IMG/VR virus record: IMGVR_UViG_3300049844_000277
Coordinates: 36,520 to 100,519 of that record
DNA length: 64,000 bases
Origin: a virus
Reading direction: 5' to 3' (one strand)
Within the stretch, counting starts at the first letter, position 1. Each line of letters opens with the position of its first letter. Position numbers and translations under genes: made by a program. Below are positions 9,086 to 62,261 of this stretch, one piece after another. The notes under the pieces are model-generated. The model searched no databases. It saw nothing but the letters and a program-made list of their open reading frames with translations, and was not told the origin of the DNA.

Positions 9086-10885
9086 TTAGTAACGCCCTTC
9101 CGGACCCATCCCAAATTCAGCCCCATAAGCATAGGCGGGTACCGGATGCGTACTGTGTAAATCAGACGCAGCGCCGGTTCGTGCCCCCTGCAGAAGGGAA
9201 TCCTTTAGATATCGGTGAGCCAAGCGCGCCATCCAGTCAGGATGTAGCAGTGGATTACGTGCCATCGGACGCATCAAAAATTCTACCCGAGGTAATGTAG
9301 TGGCGACAGATACTTCCGAAATTTTATGCTCATTCAATTTCTGTATAACTGATGGTGTTAACGGAGTTCCGGCGGTGAAGTGAAGAACTTCTTTACCGAG
9401 TACACCACCCTCCGCCTGCTTCAACGGAACAGATTTACTGTGCCGTGCTGCGGCATCTCTATACGTTGAGTAAGGAATAACCTCGCCCTTTACCAACGTA
9501 GGATGCTCATCAGTATGCTCGAGAACTTTGACGTGGTTGAGGTCCGCGCGGGCAACCAACTCAAGGTGCCGCTTGTCGACATTGAGTCCTTGTCCATGAT
9601 AGATGTCGTGCAATGTGTCCACGAGGTACTGTCGTCCGACACCAAAGCCCTTGTGATGAATGAGCTCGTCTGGTTTCGGAATTCCTTCTGATAAGACATC
9701 CCCCGCCTCTACTTTCTGTCCCACATGAACTAAGATTTTTAAGTTTGGTCCGGCGTAATGTTGTAAAGCATCAACATGCACGTATGTTCCACCGTGCGGA
9801 GCTGGGATTATTTTTGTAATAGTACCTGCGTGCTCTGCTAGCGGTGCTTTATTAATGAAGGTCTGGGGGATTTCCAAAAGCTGACGGATACCAGACATCC
9901 CCTCTAACTTGGGGGATGTACCTTTGAGTAACCGCATACCGTGCTTAGCGCCGAGCGCCATTTGAGTCAACGGTTCGGAGATAGACTGGGCGGCACGGAC
10001 TCCGACGTTAACACCGATAGCGTGCGGACGTCCTCGCTCATCTAGACCCTGGCACTTACGACAGACGCCATCCTTGGTGACGCAGGTCATTGGTGAACGC
10101 ACGTACACTGTACTGACCTTTGCCTGAAGCTTAGACGCCACTTCTTTTGTAACTAAATCATTCCGATGAAATCCAGCCTGGTCTCGAGATAAATAGCGGT
10201 CAACAATATTTCCATCGGAACTATTCATTGCGAGACCGTTATCAGTTCCGCAATCGTCCTGGGTAATAACCAGCGGATACATATTGTTGGTCATCACCTT
10301 AGACATATCGCCAGGCTCTGCGATGGCCGTATAGGTTTGTACGATGTTATGTCGCGCTTCGTTTCCTGCGGCCCAATGGTCAGCAGCGGACAACCCTTCG
10401 GCGTAGGACTTACTGATTAGCCAGGGATTTATCTCCCCTTTGCTTGTCGTAGTCGCAACCGGGGACGCAATGGTTTTCATCAGCTGCGGAATATTGCCGC
10501 GCGCACCCGACAATGCCATCGAGGTCATAGAACCTGGATGCTTTTTGGTGTGCTCAAGCATCTTCTTTTGTACATCTAAAATAATCTTCTCTTTGGCGTC
10601 TCTATTGTCCGCGTTTTTAATTGCGGCGACAGCGGGCTGCATGATGCTGTCGCGTTCTTTGTACTCCGGCGTAATGTCATCCAACCCTACAGAGACACCT
10701 TCAAGCGTAGAGATGTCGTCCCCTAAGGTTTTTAGCTTAGAGACAATTTCTACGTATTCGGCAGGATCTTCCTTGGCCAAGTCCAACATTTTCTGTTGGA
10801 ACTCTTTTTTATTTAGTGTGCCCGTAATGTGATGCTTCCCGGGCAGCAGGCTATTGACCAGAAACCTACCTAACGGCTGAGCCAT
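9086..10885 (-). CDS. rpoC: DNA-directed RNA polymerase beta' subunit, C-terminal half (separate polypeptide)
   Basis: Translation contains the conserved beta' C-terminal blocks: GVSVGLDDI, MALSGARGN...QL (trigger-loop region), ITQDDCGTDNG, MTCVTKDGVCRKCQG, GVRAAQSISEPLTQMAL, and the terminal ...ARNPLLHPDWMARLAHRYLKDSLLQGARTG region. Confidence 0.85.
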   Translation of the reverse strand: MAQPLGRFLVNSLLPGKHHITGTLNKKEFQQKMLDLAKEDPAEYVEIVSKLKTLGDDISTLEGVSVGLDDITPEYKERDSIMQPAVAAIKNADNRDAKEKIILDVQKKMLEHTKKHPGSMTSMALSGARGNIPQLMKTIASPVATTTSKGEINPWLISKSYAEGLSAADHWAAGNEARHNIVQTYTAIAEPGDMSKVMTNNMYPLVITQDDCGTDNGLAMNSSDGNIVDRYLSRDQAGFHRNDLVTKEVASKLQAKVSTVYVRSPMTCVTKDGVCRKCQGLDERGRPHAIGVNVGVRAAQSISEPLTQMALGAKHGMRLLKGTSPKLEGMSGIRQLLEIPQTFINKAPLAEHAGTITKIIPAPHGGTYVHVDALQHYAGPNLKILVHVGQKVEAGDVLSEGIPKPDELIHHKGFGVGRQYLVDTLHDIYHGQGLNVDKRHLELVARADLNHVKVLEHTDEHPTLVKGEVIPYSTYRDAAARHSKSVPLKQAEGGVLGKEVLHFTAGTPLTPSVIQKLNEHKISEVSVATTLPRVEFLMRPMARNPLLHPDWMARLAHRYLKDSLLQGARTGAASDLHSTHPVPAYAYGAEFGMGPEGRY

Positions 10886-10891
10886 GGGAAT

Positions 10892-11308
10892 CTATCTCGC
10901 CCCGTATGGGTCATTAGGAGGCGGAGGTTGTTGAGGTTGAGACGGTGTCATGGCCTGCTGTATGCCCATCATAGCTAGGGGAATAGACGCTTGAATCGCC
11001 ATATCCCGCCCAAAACTTTTTAAACCTGATTTCCAACCACCTGGCTCTTGGGCTGGCGTTGCGGGGACCTCAGGTGTCTTTGGTACAGTGTCCGCAGACG
11101 TCACTGCCGGATTGGCGGTACCACCAAAAATAGGCGGCTTGCCTGCTGGCTGCTGTACCGGCGCTGCTGGCGATGTCTTCGGCGTAACAGGTTTGCCCTT
11201 CTGACCCTTCGCGAAGCGCAGCATCTGAACGGGCGCAGGCGCAGCCGTTTTCGTAAACGTCATCCACGCATCAGTAGTTCCCACAGAATAAAAGATATCG
11301 GCAATCAT
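10892..11308 (-). CDS. Hypothetical Pro/Ala-rich protein (138 aa) inside the split-rpoC locus
   Basis: ORF whose start overlaps the upstream stop (ATGA); low-complexity PA-rich sequence. Confidence 0.35.
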   Translation of the reverse strand: MIADIFYSVGTTDAWMTFTKTAAPAPVQMLRFAKGQKGKPVTPKTSPAAPVQQPAGKPPIFGGTANPAVTSADTVPKTPEVPATPAQEPGGWKSGLKSFGRDMAIQASIPLAMMGIQQAMTPSQPQQPPPPNDPYGAR

Positions 11309-11664
11309 ATCGCAGCTCCGTCCCGACCAATGCCGGAGTAATCATACGTAGGCGAGCCGCCGCTCCAAGGACTTGATACTCCGCCCCATCGTACGGGGTT
11401 CCCAAAACGCTCGCGACGTTTATCACGCTCAGGGGAAATCCCCGGGTCCATGTCCGTAAGATGCTTAGCTAACCGCTCCGCGGCTACGTTCATATCCCCG
11501 TGCGGAATAGCATGCTGCATGGCATGAGCGGCGGTTCTCACGCCGAAATCTTCTTCTGCGCGAATTCTACCTTCAGCGTAAGCTAAATTCGTCATACGAA
11601 AACCTAGGCTACTCTCGCCCACTACGCAATCGATTAGGTGTAACAGCGTTCTCTTTCCAACCAA
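11305..11664 (-). CDS. Hypothetical protein (119 aa) inside the split-rpoC locus
   Basis: Intact ORF, ATGA overlap with the downstream gene. Confidence 0.35.
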   Translation of the reverse strand: MVGKRTLLHLIDCVVGESSLGFRMTNLAYAEGRIRAEEDFGVRTAAHAMQHAIPHGDMNVAAERLAKHLTDMDPGISPERDKRRERFGNPVRWGGVSSPWSGGSPTYDYSGIGRDGAAI

Positions 11665-11750
11665 CTAAAGCTTCGCGCTTTTTAACGGCATCCTTTAGTT
11701 TCTGCGCTAATTCTTCAGCGGCGATGCGCTGTCCTTCCTCGTAAGCGTAC

Positions 11751-12380
11751 TTAAGTACCGGCTCCACGGGAACCTCCTTCACAGAACATCATTCGCCGTA
11801 GGTCATCAGCATGCTGCTGGTCAGTAAGGACCATTTGCTCCAGCATGACCTTAAGCGACAAATTATCTCCGGCCATGTCTGACAGATGTCGTAACTCTTC
11901 AATCAATTGCTTCTCAGTTTGTAGAAGAGTCATGAAAATCTGGTGGAGGTCACTCATGTTCGGGATGACACCTACCTTAGGAATAGGTTCTCCGCCTAAC
12001 GCCGTAATCTTCATTGCGAGATGGTAGGCGTCCATCCGCTCTTCTTTGATGTGCTCTTTAAAGTGGTCGTAGATAACATCTCTAAAGTGCGCACGAATAC
12101 GATCGCCATAATTCATATACATGAAGATGATGGTATATTTGTAGCGCAGCAACTTATTACACTGAGCCACTACCTTATCCTGGGCAACCGCGAAGAATCC
12201 TTCCTCGGCCGATACAGCAAGAGGATGAGCACCAGCAGATGCTGTGGCAAGCGGAGGCATGGCGAACATCTCCTCCGTGTGCGGGGATGACTCCATTGTG
12301 TCCGCCATTGGACTGCTAGGAACTGGAAGACTCGAGCCACTCTCAGCCATGGAAGTACCCACTTTGTAGCGCTGCGTCAT
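11751..12380 (-). CDS. Hypothetical helical protein (209 aa) immediately after the rpoB-rpoC fusion; weak ferritin-like E/H spacing
   Basis: Start ATG overlaps the fusion-gene stop (ATGA). Paired E...H residues (KEHIKEERMDAYH, EQMVLTDQQH), but no clean ExxH pairs. Confidence 0.35.
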   Translation of the reverse strand: MTQRYKVGTSMAESGSSLPVPSSPMADTMESSPHTEEMFAMPPLATASAGAHPLAVSAEEGFFAVAQDKVVAQCNKLLRYKYTIIFMYMNYGDRIRAHFRDVIYDHFKEHIKEERMDAYHLAMKITALGGEPIPKVGVIPNMSDLHQIFMTLLQTEKQLIEELRHLSDMAGDNLSLKVMLEQMVLTDQQHADDLRRMMFCEGGSRGAGT

Positions 12381-15300
12381 GTACCCACCTCAACTCGAGT
12401 ATTGAGCGTAATCTCCCCGCGCTTATAGGCGGCGAGAGCTTCTTCTCTATTTTTGAAATGGCGTACTTTATCGTTCGCGGAACTCTCGGCTTTGGACGCC
12501 AAATGTACCCCAAGCATAGCTTCCATTCGTGGCGCTACCATCAAGCTATCTTTTTCACGGTCCGAGAATAGAAGGTTTGAGAGAGTCATCCCCTTCACTT
12601 CATCTATCGCGGGCTTCAGTACGGGAACGTGGATTTGGAATGTGTCCCAAACTACGAGGCCGTCGTTGACCGCGAAAATTTGTGTGTCAGGAACAATAAG
12701 GTCATAGACGGTTTCTTTTCTTAATACCTCGACCGACTCTACTAGATCCCAGGTAATTCCAACGTTCTCAACGATCCTTGCCCAAGCATCGACATCTGGT
12801 GTTTTGGCCGTCCGGAAAAAATGCAACATACGCCGAGCGTTTTGCCTCGTAACGTATGGAGCCTCTTTTCGTTTAGATCGTAGCGTAGCCAATGATGCGC
12901 AGAACGAACTATCTTCCGCGCACGGACCAGTACGGCTGGAGGCGAGGGTCATTAGATTTTTAGGAACAGGAACAATATCCACCTGATCCACAAGTTCATC
13001 AGCTTCTAGGAGGTTCAAAGCCTCCAAAGATTTAGAGTTGTTCCAAATTCCTCTACGAAGCCAGGACACGTTACGCTGGAGGTCTACGGTACTAATAGGT
13101 ATCGTATAAGCTACAGCTTTTTGGAGACGTCCCTCCTTCGGATATGCTTCGCTCACAGAACACCGGACGCCGATAGTTTGTAACAAAAAACGTAATGAAG
13201 CTGCTAACGCAGCAGACGACGTGTGAAGGGCGGCCATCACTTGAAGTTTTGCCTTACCGGCGCTGACAGTGAGTGTACCGTCACCGTTCAACATTCCGAT
13301 GAGCACACCCCACCGAGCCTCCTCAGACCAGTCCCCAAACGCTGGCACGCGTTTCGAGAGACAAGAGCGTCCGGGTACCCTCTCATCTAAGTAACAAGTC
13401 TTGAACAGCTCAACGCACTTCTGCGCACCACTAAAGTGGTCTTTGATACTTTGTCCTGTTATTCCGTTAGATGCGTCGTGTACCTCACGATACGTATTTC
13501 GCTTAATGAGCTTACCCTCAAACGCATTCACCGCGGCAGCAAAGCGTTCACGGTGCACGTCACTAACTTTCGTGTACCCGAAATAATGATCGGTTTCACC
13601 CAGTAAGAAACCGTCGGACAAGAATGCGCCGACCATCCATCCAAACTCAAAATCCCCCTGTGACCCCGTTAACGGTAAATGCCGCACAACCGGAGCTAAC
13701 TTTCCAACGGAATCCGAGGGCGCTGTTGCTTCGATCTGACCTGTTTCATGGTTATAAATACACAACGACTCATTCGTCGACGCCGTAACGCTTAAACCAC
13801 GACGCATTTCTACTTTCGCCACTTCGCATCCGTCTTCAATCGTAAGTCCTGTCACCGGGGACATTACTGATTTACTTGCGGAGTGGTCGTAAGAAAGAAC
13901 GCGAAAACCCTCCGGAACGGCGTAACTGCGAGCACCATTCTTGTCGATACTATAGGGCTCCTCAGCGTGTGGAATCTCTTGAAGCTCCGCTTCCACCAGC
14001 GCCTGTACCGCTGAGGTCCAACAAACACGAGTCTCTGCCGCGAATTTCATGGCTGTCTCCTTGGCTTCATCGCCAAGGAGCGCTTTACAAGCCGCACCTT
14101 CTGCTGTCAACACAACTTTCGTCGAACCCAAGAAACAGTTTCCATCGTAATCCGCATTGAAGCCAAGCTCTGCGAACGGATTTACGCGAATCGTCTTCCC
14201 CGCAACAGGGACGGCGTGAGCGCCAATAAACCCGTACCGGTGGAGAGTCGGAGCGCGATTCACCATCACCGGACGCTCCTTAATCTCCGCCATCAACGCG
14301 TCGTGCGCTGCCGGATGTTTCTTTTCCAACATCTCTTTCGCTTGAATGGCTCCGAAGCCGCGACGGATAAGGCGTGAGATAATAAACTTCCCGTACATGC
14401 CCCAAAGCATGTCTATCGGAATACCTATCTCATCCATGCTCAGAGAGCCGTCTGGAGCTATGGTTCCGCGGCCGGAGATATCTTGCTGCCGCTTCATTAT
14501 TCGTTTTTGGAAAAAGGAACTGTTCCCCGATACGGAAGGTTTACCGTTACGGCGAACAACTACAGTACCATTAGGGACTGTCACACAATACACGGTTCCT
14601 TTGTACGGGTACGCCTCGGTAAAAGAGCCCGACTCAATGGTGACATCAGAAAACCCCCGCACAGAAAAAAGATAATGCGGGAGATGGTGATCCTTAACTG
14701 GCGGACAAATTCCTCTAAAAATAACTTGGTAACCTATTTTTGCAGCGAGATGCTGTAGGTCATCAATTAATTGTAAACTAGCGGTACCGGCGTGAGCACT
14801 CAGCGGTTTACGCCGATAATGGGTTTTCGGGTTTTTCACGTTCTTCGCTAACGAAGGGTGAAGGGTTCCATCTCCACGCAGATATCCGCGCAATAATCCC
14901 TCTAACATAGCAGAAGGCCACGCTAAAATATCTGAAGATAAGTGTTTACTCTCGCACCCACGCCCGCAATGATGCGTTAACCAATCCGCCAGTGAGCGTA
15001 ACCTAATAGTCCACCAGATTACCTGGTATCCATCTTTACGCGTATATGTTTTGCGTACAAAGGGAATATCCAATTTTTTAAAGCACAAATCCACCGCGCG
15101 AACGTGTGGAGACGTTGCGGCTTGACACAAAGAAACCTGGGTTCCTGTTGTGGAAATCCAACCTTCCGCAATCCACCAACCTACAAACTCCGCAAAGGCC
15201 AAAGGATCTGGAGTAAATGTTCCTACTAAATTAGCCGTACGCCGTTTTTTGTTATCCGTAGAAACTTCACACGTATCTCCCGCGAAAACCAACTCCGGAA

Positions 15301-18300
15301 AAGTACCCTCCCACTCCTCAGCGCTAACCATTACCCTCCGGCGGTCCGTGCCTATAAAAGTATCCGCGCGTACCTTTTCCCACGGAGTCCAGACATAGAG
15401 CGCCTTACCGTTACTTACGCGCTTACGGCGATACGAGACTACATGTTCGTGGTTAGGTGTTACACATAAATCAAGTTCACGGCTGCGCGTATGTATCAGA
15501 TCTCCGTCGAACGGCATGGATACTAACGCGGTCGGCTTCTGCCATTCAAATTCCCGGGTGTCTAAGTTAACCGTAGCGACACGAGTTTTTCCGGTGTACT
15601 TAGAAAAACGAACCCACCCTTTTTCTGTAAGAATATCTGTTTGATCATCGTAACATTTTGGCGTAGTTTTCCCGGTAATATGCTCGAGAAATCCCTTTAC
15701 GTTTCTCTTTTGGAGTTTGGGGTTATCTGATTCGTGCGTACCAATCACGGCGCCTACCGCGTGAAACAAGTTCTGACGAAGCTTCGCTTGTTCATCCGGC
15801 GGAAGAATTGGAGATTCAATTTGCTTCCGTAATGACTGATTATGAAGGATAGCGCTTTGGTACAGGTAGTTCGAATCACCTACTACGAGCTCAGAGCCAC
15901 TCTTCCCCGGAAGAATGGGTCGCATTATTGGAGGAAGAACAGGCAACTTGGATAGGACGTACGCATCTCCCGGCTTGAGCTCCTGCCGATTCAGCGCCTC
16001 AAGGAACTTCAACTGCTTTACTGCGTCATCTAGCTTCGTACCGGAGAGCGACTTAATAGAGTTACGGAGCTCCGCGATACGCGCCTTAACGTCGATAGCG
16101 TTAAGCTTTTTCTTTACCGCAGCGCCACCATTCGTATGGTGATACTGGTCAAAATCTTTCGCGGTCATCCCCAGCAAGCGACGGGCAGGGTCGGCGAATA
16201 CAGGATTTACAACGGGCTCGGCGAGCTCAATGTGGCTCCACCGTGTTCCAGTGGTACCGCCAGTAACCGCGGGGTCAAACAATCCCCCACGTTCAGCGGC
16301 CAAATCTTTAGCGCGTACTAACTTCTCATTTTGTACTTCGCCAGATGACATCCGTAGAATGTCTTTATCGGTAAGCGGAGAGAGCGTGCTGATACTTCCA
16401 CGCGAATCAACTTTGACCCCTGCGCCATGCAGCATACCGATGAACTTGTCATAAACGAACGACGACTTGAGTGGAGGGAGAGGCAGTCCCAGCTGAATCG
16501 CCCGCCAGAACTCATCGTTCTTCTGGCTCTTAATAGCCGCCGTCTCTCGAAGCACGTTCCGCGCATTATGTGCAACGAGGGCATTGAACTCCATTTTACC
16601 GACGGCTTTCGCGCCTTCGTCACCGCCCTTAATTGGCTGCTGATTAACGTCGTACGCACCCGTACCGCGCGCGGCGTAGTTGGTCTCCGTGGTCTTAAAC
16701 AAGCGAAGTACGTATTGCGGCCCAACCAGGATTCCCGGAATCTTTTTACCCGACACAGGGTCTATCAGCGTTTCCTTGTCCTTGACCTTGTGCTCCTTCA
16801 GTAAATCCTTTGCCCACTGTACGTTGTCACGCCCTGAAAAGTTTTCAACGACAATAGGTTTACCGATTTTCTTGGCAACCTTAGCGACACACGTCTCTAG
16901 TATTTGCGACGGATTGATTCGGGAAATTACGCCAGCCGAGGTATACAAAACCTCAATCGGCTTACCCGTCTCATCTTGAAGCATCTTGTGATCGGGAACA
17001 ATAAGGGAAACAACGCCCTTGTTTCCGTGGCGTCCTGTGTTTCCGCACCATACTGATTTACCATTTCTGCGAACATACAAAACATGTCCAGGAACAGTTA
17101 CACAGTAAACTGGTGATTTGTACGAATCTACAAAACATTCCACCTGACCCTTCTGTCGTTTGATATGTCCATGATTCACAGTAGGTGTTAATTTCGAATT
17201 AATAATTCGTACCTGCCAATAATCACGACACCAAAAATCTTTACCTTTGATTGTTTGATACCCTTCAGCTTTCGCTAACGACACATTAGCAGCTTTACCA
17301 ATATGTAGTGCGAGACGCTGAACATCATCCGCCAAACGTTTGGATGTTGTTTTGTAGCATATCGGTTGGCCATTTTTAGTATGACCGTCACCCCACATCA
17401 ACCAGTTGAATAGCGTCTCTTGATCCGCTCGAGACCAAGCGAACACCTCAAGCGGGATAAATTTCTCGTAAGACTTACCGAACTGTTTAAAGTACTGCCA
17501 ATATTGCTTGGAATGAATACGAACCTTATCACCTGTGTCCGTGAATAAAATCCCTTCCTCACGAAGAAACTTTTCTAACTGTTTTCGATTTGGCTGATTA
17601 ATTTGCGTAATCTCTATGCCGTAAGTACCGGATTCTTCAATCGTAATGAGATTACCTTCAGATAAAAACGCACCGAGAAGAGCGGCTAAGGTTTTAGTCG
17701 GAAGCGCTTTATCATCTAAAACACGTAAACCCCGGCCCCCTTGTCCCGCGCGCACAGTTATCGAGTCAAATACAAACGACTCAGGAGAGTGCCCCACCCA
17801 AATCCCATCCTTCTTATAACTGACCCTTTTTCCTGCGATTTCATACGCCGGTAAAAGTTGGAAAGATTTCTCGTTGCGCGGTTGAACGTACATATGATGT
17901 CCGTCGGTCACAAACAAATCTACCTGTTGTGATTCGATGCGGTACATCCGTCCGCCTTCTGGATACGAATGAATTGCGTCGGGCTCTAGGTACTCGATAT
18001 TTTCGCCATTCTGTAACGTACAAATCTTATCCGTAATACGTACATCCGCTATCGGTTTCCACCCTTCCCACGTGAGAACCTCAGTCTCTGCATCATAACA
18101 GAGCTTGTCTCCGACGCGCATCGGCTCACGGGTCTTAACCGTTACAACGACACGCTTGTCCGTCACATAAACATCCATGACTTCACCTTCGAAGTCGTGG
18201 TCCCACGTACGAACAAGTTCCCGATACGGCGTAACTAACGTCTTCTTTAGGTTACCGAGAAGCGCATCAGACGCCGAAAGTTTACCTCGTGTGACTCCAG

Positions 18301-20887
18301 CGATGAGTATGTCGTGAGGCATAACCTTCATGCCCTTCTTCACGACACCATTGGGGTCAAGCTTACGATACTGCTCTGCGGTATACTTCGACCCGTAGTA
18401 CTGCTGATGGATATCCCTGCCAACCTTGGAGTCGCGATCTACTTCAACAACTTCCTTGTACATATGCTCTGACGTTAACTTCTCGGCGGCGCCAGAGGAG
18501 ATAACGACGGCATCGTTGGAGTTCATTCCGTAATACGGAACGTACCCTACCGTCATATTCGTACCGAGAGCGAAGGAACCGTTGCGGGTAAAATTAGACT
18601 CCGCGAGCGGCTGATCCGCTTCTACCTTATCACCAGGCTTCACCAGAATGTCGTGATGAAGGTGTGTCTTAGATGCGAACGGAAAATTATTCTCGTATGG
18701 AACCCGAATCAAATCTTTCTCAGCAGCTACCTTTTCCCGATTACGCTCGGAGAGGTAGTCCTCTTTAAACTCATCCCAGGTATACTCATCCATGGAACCG
18801 TAGCCCCAAGGAGGACCGTGCTTCTCGTAAGCGCTTTTAGCGGCCTCTTTGGAATCGAAGCCAAGCATGCACTTGTCTTCGTCGTGAGACCCATCCTTCT
18901 TGCGCTGATGTACGACGTAAACATTATCGAAAGAACCATCTTCCTTCAGATAAACGTCGACCGTTTCACCGTCGTCGCCGACGGTCTTAGGAATGTGTCC
19001 GTAGGCCACGGACATCTTCTTTTCCCACTTCTCTCCTTCGGCGTTAGTGCCGGTACGAATATCTCCCGGTTCAAGCTCAATCTTAACGAGCACACCTTGA
19101 ACAGTCTTTTGACGCTTGACCGCCCCGCCTCGTTTCTCGAAAGCGCTCTTCTCGCTTAAGAAATCTTCAGCGTGCTTCTTTCCGCTAGGGTCGATGTAGA
19201 TGTATTGCCCATCAACCTTCACTACTTTGCCCGCTACAGGTGCCGTAGGAAGAACCAGCCCCGCGAGCTCCTTCTCCCAGCTTGAATGCTCAACACCCTT
19301 CTCAGTCAACTTATTGGCGGCTGATTGTACAAGAGGTGCTTCGCGATGAACGAGAGGAAGGGCTTGTGTTTGAACCTTACCACCCATGATGGCACGGTTC
19401 CCCTGCATCGACTCAAGGAACGGGACAAGGTTAGTTGCCGGAGAATACAACTGAGCCACGTCGTACAACTGGTGAGTCACCTTTGCCGCTGGTACGTGCT
19501 CCAACTGCCCTTTGTTCATTGCGGTGACCATTCCCGTAAGCTTTTGCTTAGGGAACGCCACGACCGCCTCGGACATTTGAGCCGCAGACAGCATCTCATA
19601 CTTACCGGACTTAATGTTCTTAGCTGCGGTGTAGAGATTTCCCGTAGCATCCCGGTGCGCCATCATCGCCGTGCGAATATCAATACCAGCGCGGAAGGAC
19701 TCAGACGTACGAACGGGGTCCAGTATCCCTAGATGACTCGAATGAATAGTACGCGCTTCAGCGGGAATCGCGCGCTCATTCGGAATACCTCCTTCGCCGA
19801 GAGATGTAACACGCACAGCGTGGTCGATGGCCTCCATCGGGTTGATGTGCGTGGGAATCGAGCTCAGTTGTGAACCCGTAAGAAAACTTCGGATGCCGGG
19901 CGAAAAGGGCGACGAAGGAAGAATCGCACGGAGTTCAGTCTTATGTGTTGCGCGACCCTTTACCTTATTTGCCAGGGCACGTGCATCCAGCGTTATACGT
20001 TCCTTGATAAAATCGTCTACCGAATGATACGTCTTGAAACGTAAAGCGTCACGATCATCAGTATCCGCATTATCCCGGTACACCTGTAATAGCCGCTTCG
20101 ACGCAACGAGTAGTGCCTGCGGCGTAACCGATGAAAAAGCGTGCCCCAAGGTTTGTTGGTTAACCTCGGGATCCATAGACGTAACAGCGTAAGCTGCTCG
20201 AATAGCATCAAGCTGTGTCTCAGGATTAGTCGCAGCACGTTTAGCCGGATGCACTACTTTCTCGTAAAGCTTATTCAAATGCTTATCGTGCTTACCTTCG
20301 AAAGCCGCCTCATTTTGATGAGCGACATCCGAGCCCCAATGAGTAGAAATATCAGCGTGCGGAACGCCTAATTTTCGAAGTACGGGGTAAAGCGGAATAG
20401 ATGTCGTCCCATACTCGATGTATGGATGTCCTTGGGCAGGGTCTAACGAAAGTCGAAAATTGGTTCCCTTCGACAAGTTAAAGGCGGCCTCTAGTTCCTC
20501 ATTTCCACGTCGCCGCGTATAGACGCCAGGCTTGAGCCGAAGTTGATTTGATACGTTGTACTCGTTACCGTCCAAAATAAAAGTATGCCGTCCTGTGAAA
20601 TAAGGAAGACTCAATAACGTAAAGTTCTTAACTTTCTCAACTTCTTTACCGGAAGCATCACGTAGTGTGACGGTTCCTTTTATCGGCTCAGAAAGAGAAC
20701 CACCGCTCAATAGCGCGTGCTTTTGATCGTTTGGGCCAAAGTCCTTTTCATGGACCTTCAGGTCACTGACCTCAATACTCTTATCCCGCAATGTCAGTGG
20801 AAAAGCGTTTCGCAACGCATCGAGCGCCTTTGCACGAATTTGAACTCGACGGGACTCGGCATCGGTAAGCACGGGAGTGAGCGACAT
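12377..20887 (-). CDS. rpoBC: Fused DNA-directed RNA polymerase beta subunit plus beta' N-terminal half (2836 aa), interrupted by three LAGLIDADG inteins
   Basis: Beta motifs: N-terminal GTFILDGNEYNVSNQLRLKPGVY; VTSLGEGGIPNERAIPAEARTIHSSHLGILDPVRTSESFRAGIDI; FLESMQGNRAIMGGKVQTQALP; NMTVGYVPYYGMNSNDAVVIS; MRVGDKL/TGRHGNKGVVS split by an intein; LETCVAKVAKKIG; GTGAYDVNQQPIKGGD...GKMEFNALVAH. From about aa 1500 come beta' motifs: GHIELAEPVVNPVF; LPVLPPIMRPILP; SNYLYQSAI; NRAPTLHRYGFIGAHAVPVAGKTIRVNP; NADYDGN/TFQIHVP split by an intein. The ORF ends about 90 aa after the catalytic loop. Confidence 0.9.
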   Translation of the reverse strand: MSLTPVLTDAESRRVQIRAKALDALRNAFPLTLRDKSIEVSDLKVHEKDFGPNDQKHALLSGGSLSEPIKGTVTLRDASGKEVEKVKNFTLLSLPYFTGRHTFILDGNEYNVSNQLRLKPGVYTRRRGNEELEAAFNLSKGTNFRLSLDPAQGHPYIEYGTTSIPLYPVLRKLGVPHADISTHWGSDVAHQNEAAFEGKHDKHLNKLYEKVVHPAKRAATNPETQLDAIRAAYAVTSMDPEVNQQTLGHAFSSVTPQALLVASKRLLQVYRDNADTDDRDALRFKTYHSVDDFIKERITLDARALANKVKGRATHKTELRAILPSSPFSPGIRSFLTGSQLSSIPTHINPMEAIDHAVRVTSLGEGGIPNERAIPAEARTIHSSHLGILDPVRTSESFRAGIDIRTAMMAHRDATGNLYTAAKNIKSGKYEMLSAAQMSEAVVAFPKQKLTGMVTAMNKGQLEHVPAAKVTHQLYDVAQLYSPATNLVPFLESMQGNRAIMGGKVQTQALPLVHREAPLVQSAANKLTEKGVEHSSWEKELAGLVLPTAPVAGKVVKVDGQYIYIDPSGKKHAEDFLSEKSAFEKRGGAVKRQKTVQGVLVKIELEPGDIRTGTNAEGEKWEKKMSVAYGHIPKTVGDDGETVDVYLKEDGSFDNVYVVHQRKKDGSHDEDKCMLGFDSKEAAKSAYEKHGPPWGYGSMDEYTWDEFKEDYLSERNREKVAAEKDLIRVPYENNFPFASKTHLHHDILVKPGDKVEADQPLAESNFTRNGSFALGTNMTVGYVPYYGMNSNDAVVISSGAAEKLTSEHMYKEVVEVDRDSKVGRDIHQQYYGSKYTAEQYRKLDPNGVVKKGMKVMPHDILIAGVTRGKLSASDALLGNLKKTLVTPYRELVRTWDHDFEGEVMDVYVTDKRVVVTVKTREPMRVGDKLCYDAETEVLTWEGWKPIADVRITDKICTLQNGENIEYLEPDAIHSYPEGGRMYRIESQQVDLFVTDGHHMYVQPRNEKSFQLLPAYEIAGKRVSYKKDGIWVGHSPESFVFDSITVRAGQGGRGLRVLDDKALPTKTLAALLGAFLSEGNLITIEESGTYGIEITQINQPNRKQLEKFLREEGILFTDTGDKVRIHSKQYWQYFKQFGKSYEKFIPLEVFAWSRADQETLFNWLMWGDGHTKNGQPICYKTTSKRLADDVQRLALHIGKAANVSLAKAEGYQTIKGKDFWCRDYWQVRIINSKLTPTVNHGHIKRQKGQVECFVDSYKSPVYCVTVPGHVLYVRRNGKSVWCGNTGRHGNKGVVSLIVPDHKMLQDETGKPIEVLYTSAGVISRINPSQILETCVAKVAKKIGKPIVVENFSGRDNVQWAKDLLKEHKVKDKETLIDPVSGKKIPGILVGPQYVLRLFKTTETNYAARGTGAYDVNQQPIKGGDEGAKAVGKMEFNALVAHNARNVLRETAAIKSQKNDEFWRAIQLGLPLPPLKSSFVYDKFIGMLHGAGVKVDSRGSISTLSPLTDKDILRMSSGEVQNEKLVRAKDLAAERGGLFDPAVTGGTTGTRWSHIELAEPVVNPVFADPARRLLGMTAKDFDQYHHTNGGAAVKKKLNAIDVKARIAELRNSIKSLSGTKLDDAVKQLKFLEALNRQELKPGDAYVLSKLPVLPPIMRPILPGKSGSELVVGDSNYLYQSAILHNQSLRKQIESPILPPDEQAKLRQNLFHAVGAVIGTHESDNPKLQKRNVKGFLEHITGKTTPKCYDDQTDILTEKGWVRFSKYTGKTRVATVNLDTREFEWQKPTALVSMPFDGDLIHTRSRELDLCVTPNHEHVVSYRRKRVSNGKALYVWTPWEKVRADTFIGTDRRRVMVSAEEWEGTFPELVFAGDTCEVSTDNKKRRTANLVGTFTPDPLAFAEFVGWWIAEGWISTTGTQVSLCQAATSPHVRAVDLCFKKLDIPFVRKTYTRKDGYQVIWWTIRLRSLADWLTHHCGRGCESKHLSSDILAWPSAMLEGLLRGYLRGDGTLHPSLAKNVKNPKTHYRRKPLSAHAGTASLQLIDDLQHLAAKIGYQVIFRGICPPVKDHHLPHYLFSVRGFSDVTIESGSFTEAYPYKGTVYCVTVPNGTVVVRRNGKPSVSGNSSFFQKRIMKRQQDISGRGTIAPDGSLSMDEIGIPIDMLWGMYGKFIISRLIRRGFGAIQAKEMLEKKHPAAHDALMAEIKERPVMVNRAPTLHRYGFIGAHAVPVAGKTIRVNPFAELGFNADYDGNCFLGSTKVVLTAEGAACKALLGDEAKETAMKFAAETRVCWTSAVQALVEAELQEIPHAEEPYSIDKNGARSYAVPEGFRVLSYDHSASKSVMSPVTGLTIEDGCEVAKVEMRRGLSVTASTNESLCIYNHETGQIEATAPSDSVGKLAPVVRHLPLTGSQGDFEFGWMVGAFLSDGFLLGETDHYFGYTKVSDVHRERFAAAVNAFEGKLIKRNTYREVHDASNGITGQSIKDHFSGAQKCVELFKTCYLDERVPGRSCLSKRVPAFGDWSEEARWGVLIGMLNGDGTLTVSAGKAKLQVMAALHTSSAALAASLRFLLQTIGVRCSVSEAYPKEGRLQKAVAYTIPISTVDLQRNVSWLRRGIWNNSKSLEALNLLEADELVDQVDIVPVPKNLMTLASSRTGPCAEDSSFCASLATLRSKRKEAPYVTRQNARRMLHFFRTAKTPDVDAWARIVENVGITWDLVESVEVLRKETVYDLIVPDTQIFAVNDGLVVWDTFQIHVPVLKPAIDEVKGMTLSNLLFSDREKDSLMVAPRMEAMLGVHLASKAESSANDKVRHFKNREEALAAYKRGEITLNTRVEVGT
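12644..14137 (-). mobile_element. Intein 3 (about 498 aa, LAGLIDADG type) inserted in the catalytic NADFDGD Mg-binding loop of beta'
   Basis: Sequence NADYDGN-CFLGSTKVVL...FGWMVGAFLSDGFLLG...WGVLIGMLNGDGTLT...VYDLIVPDTQIFAVNDGLVVWD-TFQIHVPV. The flanks align with the bacterial NADFDGDQMAVHVP. The C-terminal residue appears to be Asp with Thr at +1; the exact boundary is uncertain. Confidence 0.7.
14522..15655 (-). mobile_element. Intein 2 (378 aa, LAGLIDADG type) in RNAP beta' N-terminal region
   Basis: Starts CYDDQTDILTEKGW. Motifs FVGWWIAEGW and LLRGYLRGDGTL. Ends YCVTVPNGTVVVRRNGKPSVSGN followed by Ser. Excision gives ...ITGKTTPK-SSFFQKRIMKRQQDISGRGTI, aligning with the bacterial [24 protein letters not shown]. 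Confidence 0.75.
17039..18100 (-). mobile_element. Intein 1 (354 aa, LAGLIDADG homing-endonuclease type) in RNAP beta between GDKL and TGRHGNKG
   Basis: Starts CYDAETEVLTWEGW (block A-like). LAGLIDADG-like motifs LLGAFLSEGNL and FNWLMWGDGHT. Ends ...YCVTVPGHVLYVRRNGKSVWCGN followed by Thr. Excising it restores GDKL-TGRHGNKGV, matching the bacterial GDKMAGRHGNKGV. Boundaries verified on the DNA. Confidence 0.8.
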
Positions 20888-22362: not shown

Positions 22363-25300
22363 TTATACAGGCTGATTTTGTTGCGCCATTTGCGCCTTCG
22401 CCTGCTGTCCTTGTTGGTTCTGAAGATCTTCCAGGCGTTGAATGACAACCGCATGCATCACAGCGTCTTCCTTACTTAAGCTATCCAACTGTGAACGCCT
22501 AGAACCAACATCCAGCCCCATGAGCTGCTGCACTATCTGGTCAGCCTGCGCGATGACCGCCTGCTGGTCGTAGTTGAGCCCAGGAGTACCTTGAGCCTGT
22601 AGCTGAACCTGCTGGGACAAGTTATTCTGTAGTTTTCGTAGCTCATTCTGGACGCGCTGATTGTGCCGCGCCTCATCAAGAGTTTCTTGTAGACGCTTCT
22701 CTCGTTCTGCGTCCAAATCAATGTCGAGTCGCTCTAGTATGGTAGTCATTGAGACGTACGAGGGACCCGCTTGCCCGGTAGCCATGCTGAGCAGTAATTG
22801 TTTAGACTCAGTGTCATCGACCATCTTCAAAGGCGTAAGTTTCGCCTCTATCTTCTCCCAGCCAAGATACCGGGACATCTGGTCGCTGTACCACTGTAGT
22901 AGGTCATTCATATCATCCGCGTGCCCTTGCGTTTGATTCTGAATGAGCCGGAGAGTTGCCTCCATGCCTGCTTTAGTTAGTCCACCGTAGAGGAACTCCT
23001 GCGGAATACCTAACGCAGCCATAATGCTCTTCTCAGCTTCTTGAAGCTCACCGAGCGTTAACATCGCCCGTCCATCGCCACCAAGATTGGATACACCAAG
23101 AGCTACTGGTGCCATCATTATGTGTAAGGGGTCACGTCGCCAGCGACGAATATTTTGTTTCATTTCATCTTGCCAACGCGCAAGAGAAATCATTTGCGTA
23201 AAATCTTGCTGTCCGTTTTGTGCGGGATGCAAGATACGCATTGGCACGACGTGCTCCAGCGCGATCGAATTTTTAGTAGCCCCACCCGCGATACAAAACG
23301 TGGAATCCTCCGCGATCTTGAAGTCAATGTATTGTTCCTCTTCCGACTCCTCTACCACGCTCACTCTCGCCGCAAAATAATCTTTCCAGAAAAAGCCACT
23401 CTTGCCGATGGTAATCTCTTCCGCATCCTCCCAATTCCATAGCGCGTAAAGCCGCTCTTGGGACGCACCGCTAACCCGTACGTGGTAACTCGGTCCGTTT
23501 GGGGTAATAACACGCCCATCAGCAAGCGCGTGAATCGGGGTAATGTGCTCACGAATCGTCGCAATACATCCTACGTGAAGGAGCATACGGTAAACATCAT
23601 ACGCAAGGCCCGCACTGGAGGTGGCGAGAGTATCTTGCCCTTCCCGCGTGTGACCATCCGCCTCCCAGAGACCTTTCAAGAATGCGAGCTTTACAGAATC
23701 CGGCGCATGAAATACTTCCGAAGGAACGCGCTTAACGCGCGCGGTTCCCGGAACCATGCCCTTGATGAGAGCCTTCACAATCACATCACACAAGGTAACC
23801 ATGCTACAGTTACCTCTCTGATTGTATCCACCGCACTCCAAGCCAAACTCTCGCCGAATTGCTTCCCGGAGGGGCTCTTCCGTCTTACTGCCCATCGCAA
23901 TCATAACGGTACGCTGGTTACAGGAACCATTTCCAACGTAATGCCCGAGGATATACGCGAAGTCCTCTGTCATCGGGCGCGTCGCGGGGAGGCGTTTTGG
24001 AACGGACCCTTCTTTCAGCTTCCTACGCGCAATCTTCCCAGGGACTCCCTTCACATGCTCACCGGCGCTCTCCGCCTCAAACGCCTGCGCGGAGGGTAAT
24101 GACATCGCGCTGTAAACGTAATTCTCGGTGTTCGCGAAACCGGTGTACTTAGCAACATCTACCTGCTGCGGCTCCGACGGAATTGTCCGGGGGTAGAGGA
24201 TATAATCACCCTTCTCGAACTGTTCCGCGGGACACATCACCTCTTCGTACAAATGCGGATTCTGAAGAATCTCCGACGACGTCTGCTTGTCTTTCGTATC
24301 CGACCGACGTGCGTCGCTTGTCCGTCGAAGGGTAAGGATGGGATGGTGCGGGGAAAATACCCCGCTGAGATGCCGAAGCCCCGAAAGCGTAATACGGCAT
24401 CCGATTTCATCATCCTTCGCATCCCGATACCACTTCTGCTCGACTGGACGCCACCGCCCGAGGTGTGTTCTCACCAAGTCGCCAACACGTACATCATCCG
24501 CGGGCACGAGACCGGTAGACGTCTCAATGAGTGTATCGAGACTGACGCACTCGTTCGCCTTCCTTAGCGTCATGGTGTAGAGGAAGAGCTTGATTGTCGA
24601 CGCAAGCGGAGGAAATCCCCACTGCTGGTCAATACCCGAAGGACTTGGAACCTTGATATGAAAAAGAGCGTCCTTCTCAAAACGAAACGTCTTGTTGTCT
24701 CGAATGTTTTCCAAGAACTCCATAGGCATCGAATTAATAAGATGCTTTGACCCCGATTTAACTTGGTCCTTAACGTCCTGCGGGATGTTATAGTAGTATA
24801 CAGATTGTCCCGTAATCGGATTGTAATCTATATCCATTAGCTTGGGATCCCACCGAATAATATGGACCCGGCTAGCAGCTAGAATCTTACGGTCAACGAC
24901 TGTACCACGCACATCTCGCTTGCAATGCAGGCAGTGGTAGGTGAAAGCCAGCGATTTCAGCTCAAACTTGTAATCAGTGTGCTGAATAGCAACGAGTTGC
25001 TGACAACTAGGACACTTCAGACTACGAACGAACGGCTTATAAATTGATGTAAAATGATTGCCATATATGTGCTTATCGAGCGACGCCATGAGAAGCGCAC
25101 TCTTAATCTTCAAAGTTTTTTCAAAAAGACGGCGATAGTTGCGCCGGAGTGCTTCATTCGATGTTCCGTACTCGAGGTCAGTTACGACGAGCTCTCCAAA
25201 TTTACGCAGAGCCGCGTAAACATGTGCACTATTATACATCAAATATTCGCACCATTTAAAGAGATCTTTTAGCTTTCTTGGTACAAAACCCGTTAGGAAG

Positions 25301-25374
25301 TCATGTGCAGGGTTTGGGTGTGAAGCCGCCCGGTCAAAAACGGACATTGTATCAGTGTTAGGAAGGTCAGCCAT
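22363..25374 (-). CDS. Putative portal / head-tail connector-like protein containing an intein (1003 aa precursor, about 576 aa spliced)
   Basis: Extein has the Q-rich C-terminal tail typical of portals (QQVQLQAQ...QQAKAQMAQQNQPV), and the gene sits first in the structural operon. N-extein has a CPSC...HCLHC zinc ribbon. The portal assignment is tentative. Confidence 0.45.
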   Translation of the reverse strand: MADLPNTDTMSVFDRAASHPNPAHDFLTGFVPRKLKDLFKWCEYLMYNSAHVYAALRKFGELVVTDLEYGTSNEALRRNYRRLFEKTLKIKSALLMASLDKHIYGNHFTSIYKPFVRSLKCPSCQQLVAIQHTDYKFELKSLAFTYHCLHCKRDVRGTVVDRKILAASRVHIIRWDPKLMDIDYNPITGQSVYYYNIPQDVKDQVKSGSKHLINSMPMEFLENIRDNKTFRFEKDALFHIKVPSPSGIDQQWGFPPLASTIKLFLYTMTLRKANECVSLDTLIETSTGLVPADDVRVGDLVRTHLGRWRPVEQKWYRDAKDDEIGCRITLSGLRHLSGVFSPHHPILTLRRTSDARRSDTKDKQTSSEILQNPHLYEEVMCPAEQFEKGDYILYPRTIPSEPQQVDVAKYTGFANTENYVYSAMSLPSAQAFEAESAGEHVKGVPGKIARRKLKEGSVPKRLPATRPMTEDFAYILGHYVGNGSCNQRTVMIAMGSKTEEPLREAIRREFGLECGGYNQRGNCSMVTLCDVIVKALIKGMVPGTARVKRVPSEVFHAPDSVKLAFLKGLWEADGHTREGQDTLATSSAGLAYDVYRMLLHVGCIATIREHITPIHALADGRVITPNGPSYHVRVSGASQERLYALWNWEDAEEITIGKSGFFWKDYFAARVSVVEESEEEQYIDFKIAEDSTFCIAGGATKNSIALEHVVPMRILHPAQNGQQDFTQMISLARWQDEMKQNIRRWRRDPLHIMMAPVALGVSNLGGDGRAMLTLGELQEAEKSIMAALGIPQEFLYGGLTKAGMEATLRLIQNQTQGHADDMNDLLQWYSDQMSRYLGWEKIEAKLTPLKMVDDTESKQLLLSMATGQAGPSYVSMTTILERLDIDLDAEREKRLQETLDEARHNQRVQNELRKLQNNLSQQVQLQAQGTPGLNYDQQAVIAQADQIVQQLMGLDVGSRRSQLDSLSKEDAVMHAVVIQRLEDLQNQQGQQAKAQMAQQNQPV
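23269..24549 (-). mobile_element. Intein (427 aa, LAGLIDADG type) in portal-like protein
   Basis: Starts CVSLDTLIETSTG (classic block A). Motifs ILGHYVGNGS and FLKGLWEADGHT. Ends YIDFKIAEDSTFCIAGGATKN followed by Ser. Boundaries verified on the DNA. Confidence 0.75.
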
Positions 25375-44239: not shown

Positions 44240-44251
44240 GAGTATAGGCGG

Positions 44252-45946: not shown

Positions 45947-45958
45947 AATAGGCGCACT

Positions 45959-46264
45959 ATGCCAACCGTCACTCCTCCAATAACTGATGACTCGGATTGC
46001 AGGGGCTACAAAGTACGATTCAACGAATCTTGGGAAGGGTCTATCTACAAAGCGAACCGTCATTGCTGGATGGCTACGCTAACCAAGAAACAGAAGAATC
46101 GCGCGCTTGTCATTCGTCCCGGAAAAAATTTTCCAAATCCTACGGAAGCGAAGAAATGGTGTGAAGAACAATTTGAACTAGAAGAAAAATCAGCGGTCCC
46201 ATACGAACAAAAACTTCGAGACGTACTCGTCGCAATCCGTAAACAAATAGAAGAAACCCTATAA
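45959..46264 (+). CDS. Hypothetical protein (101 aa)
   Basis: Intact ORF, same strand, short spacing. Confidence 0.4.
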   Translation: MPTVTPPITDDSDCRGYKVRFNESWEGSIYKANRHCWMATLTKKQKNRALVIRPGKNFPNPTEAKKWCEEQFELEEKSAVPYEQKLRDVLVAIRKQIEETL

Positions 46265-46265
46265 C

Positions 46266-46652: not shown

Positions 46653-46684
46653 CAGTCCTCCTCCCCCTCCCCTTCCCCCTCTAG

Positions 46685-46721
46685 GGCTTCTACGTACGCG
46701 TAGGAGCCCTTTCTTTTTCTT
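46685..46721 (+). terminator. Rho-independent terminator
   Basis: GGGCTTCTACG-TA-CGTAGGAGCCC (11-bp stem with one G-U pair), immediately followed by TTTCTTTTTCTT. Confidence 0.7.
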
Positions 46722-46728
46722 AGGTACC

Positions 46729-50918: not shown

Positions 50919-50945
50919 TTTTTGTTTTTCTTGTTTCCCTTGTTC

Positions 50946-51395: not shown

Positions 51396-51427
51396 TCTCT
51401 ATTTCTACCGTGTAAACCCCCGAACTG

Positions 51428-62122: not shown

Positions 62123-62183
62123 TAGTCTCGACTTCACTAAACCGTCTGCTTCACCAGCGCGGTAGACCTTGGGGTTTAGTGAA

Positions 62184-62256: not shown

Positions 62257-62261
62257 AGATG

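Follow-up and report, generated by a model that had tools for sequence, protein, structure and literature searches.

A phage RNA polymerase gene joining beta to the N-terminal part of beta' and interrupted by three predicted inteins

Introduction

Jumbo-phage RNA polymerase (RNAP) reviews and the mReC study describe the multisubunit enzymes of phages only as fragmented or crAss/YonO-type polymerases (PMC7824862, PMC13282480). The fragmented phiKZ/AR9-type enzymes are phage-encoded two-barrel polymerases without alpha or omega, and their virion form is packaged and injected (PMC7824862, PMC13282480). Their beta is divided into 2-3 pieces and their beta' into 2, the cut in beta' lying past the catalytic double-psi barrel (Iyer et al., PMC7824862); they work without a sigma factor and are much further removed from bacterial RNAP. 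Here we analyse a stretch of 64,000 nt (the window) that corresponds to positions 36,520-100,519 of the virus record IMGVR_UViG_3300049844_000277. A block at 9086-20887 of the window very probably encodes the catalytic core of a phage-borne, bacterial-type multisubunit RNAP built from two polypeptides. Unlike in the phiKZ/AR9 type, beta is whole and continues into the N-terminal part of beta' (beta'N), to which it is fused, there is a sigma-70 gene, and the best matches are bacterial RNAPs. This would be a third architecture for phage multisubunit RNAPs, beside the fragmented phiKZ/AR9 and the single-chain crAss/YonO types: a near-bacterial enzyme cut to two chains, with a candidate sigma-70 partner and probably no alpha or omega.

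Among cellular enzymes, the RpoBC proteins of Helicobacter and Wolbachia (PRK09603, PRK14844) are also covalent end-to-end fusions of beta and beta', and both of these profiles are matched, but in RpoBC beta' is whole and alpha2 and omega are still used. As the phage scores reach ~2% of the RpoBC family cut-offs, the phage protein looks like an independent fusion in a distant lineage. Cyanobacteria and plastids likewise divide beta' between the catalytic barrel and the bridge-helix module, into rpoC1 (gamma) and rpoC2 (beta''); the enzyme described here differs in lacking the large rpoC2 insertion and in having its N piece fused to beta. In Archaea the largest subunit is also the product of two genes (Rpo1N/Rpo1C, or A'/A''), with a cut ~250 residues further downstream.

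The nearest sequenced phages, as found by tblastn at ~33% identity, are Salmonella phage Arash and Vibrio phages D181, D148 and D69. They share the two-gene architecture (gp206 and gp216 in Arash, OQ632216) and the synteny, with ~33-35% identity over the full length. Arash differs in having neither inteins nor an inorganic-pyrophosphatase-like (InPase) domain, and in that other genes on the opposite strand separate its two RNAP genes, while the fusion gene of D181 is cut by a free-standing homing-endonuclease gene. The Arash paper names gp206 beta and gp216 beta' and does not describe a fusion (PMC10585845), and the records of Arash and the Vibrio D-series annotate it as 'beta' or 'hypothetical' only. 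A literature search, of incomplete coverage, returned no description of a beta-beta'N fusion or of the Asn/Asp intein anomaly reported below; nor did it, with the same incomplete coverage, return a report of inteins in bacterial-type or phage beta or beta'. An earlier note on this DNA, made from the sequence alone, had called the architecture unusual. It is not unique to the window but family-wide, and was already present in the records of Arash, D181, D148 and D69.

The fusion protein

The features of the RNAP block are as follows (window coordinates; aa, amino acids; ORF, open reading frame; evidence in brackets).

12377-20887, minus strand: fusion gene, beta plus N-terminal half of beta'; precursor of 2,836 aa, 1,606 aa without the three inteins (ORF map, Pfam)
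16475-20887, minus strand: beta portion, precursor residues 1 to ~1471, with InPase insertion and intein 1 (rpoB profile, PDB beta chains)
18707-19156, minus strand: InPase (PF18823) domain within beta, residues ~578-727 (Pfam)
17039-18100, minus strand: intein 1, 354 aa, LAGLIDADG, in beta, residues 930-1283 (absence from relatives)
16440-16480, minus strand: beta/beta' junction, precursor residues ~1471-1480 (profile coordinates)
14522-15655, minus strand: intein 2, 378 aa, LAGLIDADG, in beta', residues 1745-2122 (absence from relatives)
14138-14158, minus strand: catalytic Mg-binding motif, encoded NADYDGN (codon AAC for Asn)
12644-14137, minus strand: intein 3, 498 aa, HINT + LAGLIDADG, directly after the Mg-binding motif, residues 2251-2748
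9086-10885, minus strand: C-terminal half of beta' (beta'C), 599 aa (Pfam Rpb1_4, Rpb1_5)

By its sequence, the ORF at 12377-20887 is a bacterial-type beta joined end to end with beta' residues ~1-550 (E. coli numbering). The earlier note had read it as an in-frame fusion of beta with the N-terminal half of beta', and Pfam, phmmer searches of PDB sequences and NCBIfam profiles all agree. Pfam identifies the beta domains Rpb2_3 and Rpb2_6 and the beta' domains Rpb1_1 and Rpb1_2, in addition to one LAGLIDADG domain (LAGLIDADG_3) and a weak intein-splicing match. In the PDB searches, residues ~250-1117 of the spliced chain align to bacterial beta down to near the C-termini of the PDB chains (E ~1e-60), and residues 1226-1604 align to beta' 174-550 in E. 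coli numbering (E 1e-45); the best matches are bacterial beta and beta', with AR9-like phage subunits matching more weakly. The NCBIfam rpoB profile is matched at 372-696 and 1018-1195 of 1238, where position 1195 corresponds to residue 172 of extein 2, and the rpoC match begins ~20 residues past the end of rpoB, such that the C-terminus of beta runs straight into the N-terminus of beta'. Among 58 related loci, collected by a profile-guided scan of IMG/VR (contigs up to 194 kb), this junction is in frame in 44, as it is in Arash gp206.

Over both genes, the motifs GDK..HGNKG, NRAPTLHR and DxDG, the SGARGN bridge region and the trigger loop are all present. The beta motif GDKxxGRHGNKG is restored once intein 1 is removed, and the fusion protein contains the clamp-helix segment of beta' (KQLKFLEALNRQ...LPVLPP). 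Positions 1-155 of the rpoC profile are covered by only ~107 residues of the fusion protein, and no Cys occurs between ERGGLFDPAVTGG and WSHIELAEP; by comparison with the E. coli beta' sequence, the four-Cys N-terminal zinc ribbon of beta' appears to be missing. The NCBIfam scores are well under the equivalog cut-offs (TIGR02013, 196 bits vs 801; PRK00405, 218 bits vs 896), which indicates a distant homologue of cellular RNAP rather than an orthologue or a captured host gene.

Within beta there is an InPase domain (PF18823; E=1.6e-32, 112.6 bits vs a cut-off of 26.8, profile positions 10-132 of 135, Pfam match at residues 590-709). The insertion of ~150 aa has no counterpart in Arash gp206, D181 and many relatives, which show a gap in the alignment, and its G+C content at third codon positions (GC3) is like that of the exteins. 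Going by the identity of the domain, which is found in a subset of the family, it would hydrolyse the pyrophosphate product locally, and its location inside beta suggests that product removal is coupled to transcription. The 'pyrophosphatase' gp23 of Arash was considered as a free-standing counterpart of the insertion and rejected, as the two are not homologous (E=6.7).

The position of the split in beta'

The 599-aa protein contains the Pfam domains Rpb1_4 and Rpb1_5, matches beta' chains in PDB, and carries both the bridge-helix region (MALSGARGN) and the trigger loop (SISEPLTQMAL..KHG). It shares 33% identity with Arash gp216 across 99% of its length. The earlier note had placed this part of beta' in a separate gene ~1.5 kb downstream of the fusion gene, and the distance from the stop codon of the fusion to the start of beta'C is indeed 1,491 nt. 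The profile searches that it had suggested for the 2836-aa and 599-aa proteins both matched RpoB/RpoC families, and the motifs that it quoted were found in the two RNAP ORFs.

The last extein of the fusion (extein 4) ends at position 533 of the rpoC profile, and positions 552-1071 of the rpoC_TIGR profile correspond to residues 5-482 of beta'C. With extein 4 ending at 533 and residue 5 of beta'C lying at 552, beta' is cut cleanly between the catalytic barrel and the bridge-helix module. Relative to the cyanobacterial subunits, beta'N ends ~65 residues short of the end of gamma (the phage end corresponds to gamma residue 554 of 624). Position 26 of the rpoC2 profile aligns with residue 42 of beta'C, the C piece beginning ~16 residues ahead of the rpoC2 start. 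By these alignments the split is in the rpoC1/rpoC2 inter-module region but at another residue, some tens of positions closer to the N-terminus than the cyanobacterial site.

The split had been described in the earlier note as archaeal/cyanobacterial-like, of which the first half does not hold. The archaeal A'' profile aligns from residue ~247 of beta'C, shortly ahead of the trigger loop (positions 46-68 of the rpoA2 profile correspond to residues 293-315), and as A'' thus starts ~250 residues inside beta'C, the archaeal position is wrong. Also, A' runs ~420 residues beyond NADFDGD, compared with 88 in the phage fusion, and the bridge-helix region falls in the phage C piece, unlike the archaeal A'/A'' cut between bridge helix and trigger loop. 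The ~90 residues that were reported to separate the catalytic loop from the stop codon correspond to the 88 extein residues that would remain after splicing; in the ORF itself, a 498-aa intein directly follows NADYDG-N.

The inteins of the fusion gene

The earlier note had recognised a single intein. There are three in the fusion ORF (354, 378 and 498 aa), and the InPase insertion had also been missed. When the 2,836-aa precursor is aligned to Arash gp206, five blocks result, separated by gaps of 150 aa (InPase) and of 354, 378 and 498 aa. Two related loci, L004 and L005 (beta'C 85% and 82% identical, respectively), carry uninterrupted orthologues, with an ORF of 1,604 aa in L004, and these intein-free sequences fix the intein junctions to the residue.

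Intein 1 is inserted in beta at GDKL/C...CGN/TGRHGNKG (slashes mark the junctions), a sequence that is uninterrupted in L004, L005, Arash and D181 (GDK[LVI]TG[RL]HGNKG). Intein 2 is inserted in beta' just before KRxxDxSGR, at TTPK/C...SGN/SSFFQKRIMKRQQDISGRG; this site is empty in L004, L005 and Arash, and none of the 58 related loci has an insert there. The two are paralogous (BLASTP E=1.6e-16). Both have Cys1, a block B of the type TxxH (VTDGHH, VTPNH), a C-terminal Asn followed by Thr or Ser at +1, and a penultimate Gly in place of His. Being in frame, missing from close orthologues and matched by Pfam LAGLIDADG_3, they qualify as inteins that are predicted to splice. GC3 is 0.40, 0.43 and 0.49 for inteins 1, 2 and 3, compared with 0.51-0.60 for the exteins and 0.53-0.55 for the flanks of intein 1.

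Besides Cys1 and the penultimate Gly, inteins 1 and 2 have a Cys at block F position 4 (VYCVTVP). They resemble the class 3 signature at F:4 yet retain the N-terminal nucleophile. An insertion hot-spot was also seen in beta at spliced residue ~400 (near GEGG...RxIHxSHLG), which holds inserts of 145-360 aa in 9/58 loci and is empty in the window.

The intein at the catalytic site

Intein 3 is located directly behind the catalytic Mg-binding motif, at NADYDGN/CFLG...VVWD/TFQIHVP, where the residue at -1 is Asn (codon AAC) and the last intein residue is Asp (codon GAC). L004, L005 and L006 lack intein 3 at exactly this point. That the third residue of the catalytic Asp triad is encoded as Asn had escaped the earlier note. 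The triad is described as universally conserved (10.1101/2024.06.20.599782), and intein-free alleles read DxDGD/T in 116/116 proteins and 44/44 locus ORFs, that is, 160/160 keep the Asp. Since all of these retain the third Asp while Asn is encoded here, the mature active site is uncertain.

Sequence comparison alone hardly reveals the intein nature of intein 3. Its Pfam Intein_splicing score of 25.1 bits is below the cut-off of 35.8, phmmer against PDB sequences gave only chance matches, and a word-indexed protein search with the intein alone gave one match. However, an AlphaFold model built on 30 homologues (predicted local distance difference test, pLDDT, 88.9) has as its best Foldseek matches PI-PfuI (E=4e-18), TliVMA (2.5e-17), PI-TkoII and PI-SceI, and in this model intein 3 has the HINT + LAGLIDADG intein fold. 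A first AlphaFold run (714 aa, 3-sequence alignment) reached a pLDDT of only 48.7 and was discarded.

An exhaustive search of 1.84 billion cluster representatives uncovered 549 relatives of intein 3 (128 at E<=1e-30), mostly within proteins of 1,900-3,000 aa. An alignment of 67 sequences resolves into two clades. In the larger one (58 sequences, with a mutual identity of 20-56%) Asn(-1) is combined with Cys1 and with Asn-Glu at positions 9-10 of block B, while the smaller one (9 sequences) has Asp(-1), Ser1 and Asp-His at these positions. Cys1 always occurs with Asn(-1) (58/58) and Ser1 always with Asp(-1) (9/9). All 67/67 end with an Asp that is preceded by an aromatic residue (Trp or Tyr) and followed by Thr or Ser, and have Asp at block F:4. 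A residue of the extein active site is thus coupled to the chemistry of the intein, Asn going with Cys1 and Asp with Ser1. As the two states form two clades, this covariation may rest on a single evolutionary event.

Intein 3 does not have the canonical class 1 residues at three places, namely block B (S-x-N-E-S, with Glu at B:10), the penultimate position (Trp/Tyr) and the C-terminus (Asp), but Cys1, Asp F:4 and Thr+1 are retained. A C-terminal Asp and a non-His penultimate residue are known class 1 variants (PMC4031507). With class 1 inteins of atypical termini (C-terminal Asp/Gln, penultimate residue other than His) it shares HINT + LAGLIDADG, Cys1, Thr/Ser+1 and Asp F:4. Inteins at RNAP active-site motifs are known from archaea and eukaryotes (PMC1635734), and intein 3 resembles those of Mja rPol A'/A'' and eukaryotic RPA2/RPB2/RPC2 in occupying one of the most conserved active-site motifs. 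It differs in having Glu in place of the block B His, an aromatic penultimate residue, and Asn(-1) in place of the catalytic Asp in every member with Cys1.

Canonical chemistry at these junctions would leave Asn in the mature triad, with the junction peptide ...ADYDGNTFQIHVPVLK; the Asp version would be heavier by 0.984 Da. Of the three options which we consider possible, one is that an Asp-Asp-Asn triad works, another that Asn is converted to Asp during or after splicing, and the third that splice boundaries are unusual. A natural multisubunit RNAP using an Asp-Asp-Asn triad would be the less exotic alternative, and it would also be new. The intein family is thus either an exception to the 'invariant' Asp triad or a pointer to a splicing or maturation chemistry that is new.

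It is possible, if on the unlikely side, that intein 3 is not a canonical class 1 intein, being either shifted by one residue ([N/D][C/S]...[Y/W]) or subject to conversion of the Asn, with the mature enzyme regaining DxDGD. The strict pairing of Asn(-1) with Cys1 and of Asp(-1) with Ser1, the C-terminal Asp in all 67 sequences and the Asp in all 160 intein-free alleles are in line with such a process, and only an Asp-containing product fits the universal triad (10.1101/2024.06.20.599782). However, cleavage of Gly/Asn or Trp/Asp bonds is unknown in splicing chemistry, and in class 1 inteins the N-S acyl shift and Asn/Asp cyclisation act on the Asn/Cys and Asp/Thr bonds, leaving the Asn in place (PMC4031507); the covariation, too, may reflect one event, as noted. 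A boundary shifted by one residue fits both clades formally, but we prefer the canonical boundaries, given that the bonds in question are not cleaved by any known chemistry.

We regard it as rather unlikely that splicing or maturation turns Asn(-1) into Asp, by chemistry not described so far. In one possible route, the side-chain amide of the Asn would attack the scissile bond at the C-terminus, and hydrolysis would then take place on the extein side; metal-assisted self-deamidation of the Asn in the active centre is another possibility. An Asp at -1 beside a Cys1 thioester favours premature N-terminal cleavage, as is known from intein expression systems. Avoiding such cleavage is a plausible selective reason for Asn(-1), and this would also account for the Ser1 forms, which keep Asp.

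Sister inteins are found at the same catalytic site in L012, L019/L020, L026 and L030. They are inserted after DYDGD (DGD/[KNFA]...SN/T, the first residue being K, N, F or A), so that Asp(-1) is kept, they end in Ser-Asn, and they have no N-terminal nucleophile. Asp is retained at block F:4, which sets them apart from class 3. The Cys in C[DHN]L[AS]xFP is conserved only among these sister inteins, which may mean a different arrangement of nucleophiles.

Sigma factor, small subunits and the virion

The window contains one further gene that may belong to the transcription machinery of the phage:

31260-32093, minus strand: sigma-70-family factor, 277 aa (Pfam Sigma70_r2 + r4)

This gene scores 70.5 bits with TIGR02937 (cut-off 42.9), and regions 2 and 4 are present. 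By analogy with Arash, the protein is a candidate initiation factor of the phage RNAP. The check for alpha- and omega-like subunits in the flanking genome, proposed in the earlier note, disclosed neither family within the 64-kb window: RpoA and RpoZ Pfam families are not among its ORFs of at least 55 aa, the window representing 64 kb of a ~190-kb genome. The enzyme offers a natural test of whether a covalent tether can stand in for the alpha-dimer scaffold.

In Arash virions, gp206 is the most detected protein (3,516 spectra, 128 unique peptides, 100% coverage), gp216 (beta'C) is fifth by spectral count, and the sigma factor gp10 is present too (PMC10585845). We consider it quite improbable that the window enzyme is instead a non-virion polymerase for middle or late genes, with the phage sigma redirecting host RNAP to the early genes and serving that enzyme, not the phage one. 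Sigma factors for host RNAP are encoded by many large phages (PMC7824862), and the sigma factor of the window is not detectably related to the one packaged in Arash. Against this stand the first and fifth rank of the RNAP chains in purified Arash virions, with sigma also there (PMC10585845), the position of the RNAP genes on the same strand within a module that extends from portal to structural genes, and the presence of only one RNAP set in the window and in related loci.

Conservation of the fusion among relatives

In 44/58 loci a single ORF extends from before spliced residue 30 to beyond residue 1590 (<30 to >1590), and beta'C is 28-85% identical across the phage family. Arash gp206 (1,525 aa) aligns end to end with the spliced fusion. 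From these sequences, beta-beta'N is the standard architecture of a large phage family (~170-195 kb), sequenced isolates included. The enzyme is widespread (58 IMG/VR loci, hundreds of protein clusters), and its cultured members (Arash, Vibrio D-series) allow direct study. The relatives were found at the protein level only; when compared by megablast with 50,697 phage records, the 11.8-kb block had no match.

There are a few exceptions. In D181 and L055 a free-standing homing-endonuclease gene interrupts the fusion gene, in L029 the fusion is split near residue 570-712, and L043 and L053 have a separate beta'N piece. The breaks occur at an HNH gene at spliced ~493/733, or at ~1233, but never at the beta/beta' boundary. 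Conversely, L054 (5555-11776) and L057 (5495-11740) have beta, beta'N and beta'C in one ORF of ~2,075 aa, so that the split in beta' is optional within the family. A set of 150 intein-bearing cluster representatives includes 58 of the type beta+beta'N, 17 of the type beta+beta'N+beta'C and 5 with an unfused beta'. The 17, like L054 and L057, fuse all three parts as the RpoBC proteins of Helicobacter and Wolbachia do, and the relatives show all intermediates, from unfused beta' via beta-beta'N to the full beta-beta' fusion. Ralstonia phage RP13 and Rhizobium Kleczkowskaviridae phages also match beta'C but were set aside, having separate short pieces and a whole 1,127-aa beta', respectively.

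It is highly improbable that the block consists of captured host rpoB/rpoC fragments or is a decaying, non-functional copy. One gene with three inteins and a third catalytic Asp encoded as Asn could be taken as signs of a crippled enzyme, but identity to any bacterial RNAP is just ~25-35%, with scores that stay well under the equivalog cut-offs, the 8.5-kb ORF is intact, and the family is conserved among phages over the range of beta'C identities given above. The 58 intein representatives, in spite of their low mutual identity, show no variation in Asn(-1), Cys1 or the C-terminal Asp, which indicates purifying selection, not decay. Moreover, the homologues in Arash are abundant virion proteins (PMC10585845). 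A missed stop or frameshift between rpoB-like and rpoC-like genes, which single-contig data might suggest and for which the earlier note had flagged the junction near nt 16300-16500, can practically be dismissed, as 44 independent IMG/VR loci, Arash gp206 and 75 cluster representatives all have this junction in frame, gp206 was detected at 100% coverage as one annotated 1,525-aa protein (PMC10585845), and split relatives never break at this boundary.

Proposed mode of action

We propose that gene 1 is translated into a 2,836-aa precursor, comprising a full beta with its InPase domain that is continued by beta' ~1-550 minus the zinc ribbon. Its inteins sit at the most conserved catalytic motifs (GDK/TGRHGNKG, PK/SSFFQ and NADYDG(D/N)/T), and protein splicing of all three would be required for the 1,606-aa beta-beta'N chain to form. 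Gene 2 would supply the 599-aa beta'C, and both chains would assemble the two-barrel active centre. The covalent link between beta and beta'N probably replaces the alpha-dimer scaffold, and a phage sigma-70-family factor, for example the one at 31260-32093, probably directs initiation. Judging from the homology and synteny with Arash, the enzyme is most likely a late product that is packaged in the capsid and then injected to read early genes independently of the host polymerase.

The comparisons above establish the parts with their boundaries, the exact insertion sites, the conservation of the fusion and the intein fold, while subunit composition, sigma use and packaging are predictions. Several points weigh against the model. 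Splicing, assembly and activity are likewise predictions, and canonical splicing of intein 3 would yield DxDGN, which is without the third Asp of the triad. Every NCBIfam rpoB/rpoC score is far beneath its equivalog cut-off. The search for alpha and omega covered 64 kb of the ~190-kb genome, the BLASTP similarity of the window sigma to Arash sigma gp10 is not significant (E=0.024), and the prediction of virion packaging derives from a homologue with no more than 33% identity.

Neighbouring genes

Between and upstream of the two RNAP genes are the following features.

11751-12380, minus strand: ferritin/Dps-like protein, 209 aa (Pfam Ferritin, E=4e-11)
11305-11664, minus strand: 119-aa ORF with TTG start, no assigned function (ORF map)
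10892-11308, minus strand: 138-aa proline-rich, low-complexity ORF, no assigned function (ORF map)
22363-25374, minus strand: portal protein gene with a fourth intein, adjacent to the RNAP block on its upstream side (tblastn with Arash gp204)

All five ORFs that the earlier note had listed on the minus strand, including the three small ones between the RNAP genes, are present at those positions in the ORF map. Overlaps of 4 nt (ATGA) occur at two of the small-ORF junctions, fusion/209-aa and 119/138-aa, and a gap of 6 nt separates the 138-aa ORF from beta'C. In 23 related loci, too, the ferritin/Dps-like gene immediately follows the fusion gene. Its product is a four-helix-bundle protein, translationally coupled to the fusion gene, for which a role as an RNAP accessory protein or inside the phage head is conceivable. 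Conservation of the 119-aa ORF is limited to the three closest loci (59-64% identity), and it has no family match. The 138-aa ORF has neither a family match nor a tblastn match at 1e-4; L004 and L005 have ORFs of similar size at its position, so it is conserved in position only.

PHROGs and Pfam searches with ten flanking ORFs were almost empty, and the virion nature of the flanks emerged from tblastn with Arash proteins. Arash portal gp204 matches 22363-25374 in two pieces (E=3e-45 and 2e-32) with the intein between them, the structural proteins gp218, gp219 and gp222 match ORFs downstream of the RNAP block, and TerL matches 38794-40398. The flanks had been called virion-morphogenesis-like in the earlier note, and this is borne out by the homology to the Arash portal and to Arash virion proteins identified by mass spectrometry (PMC10585845). 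Portal, RNAP and structural genes are syntenic with Arash, all on one strand.

In addition to SNF2, ParB, the sigma-70-family factor and the large terminase, the window encodes a reverse transcriptase and an intein-bearing family A DNA polymerase. Terminase, portal, PolA, prim-pol and VapE genes mark it as a phage. The portal intein, read against intein-free L004, has the junction LRKANE/C...TKN/SIALEHVV and is matched by Pfam LAGLIDADG_3 and Hint_2. The gene for the family A DNA polymerase (34144-37527, plus strand) holds an intein at residues 678-793 (Pfam Intein_splicing), and the window thus contains five inteins: three in the RNAP fusion, one in the portal protein and one in this polymerase.

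The SNF2-family helicase gene (25431-27488, plus strand) is divergent from the portal-RNAP block, and a helicase occupies the corresponding position in Arash and D181. In phiKZ-like phages, Iyer et al. observed a linkage of SNF2 helicases to RNAP genes and suggested a RapA-like role (PMC7824862). The reverse transcriptase gene (47331-48467, plus strand; RVT_1, E=2e-14) lies in the replication module, and no template/variable repeat pair of the diversity-generating retroelement (DGR) type was found near it (44000-52500). There is also a single tRNA-Asn (GTT) gene at 62183-62257 on the minus strand.

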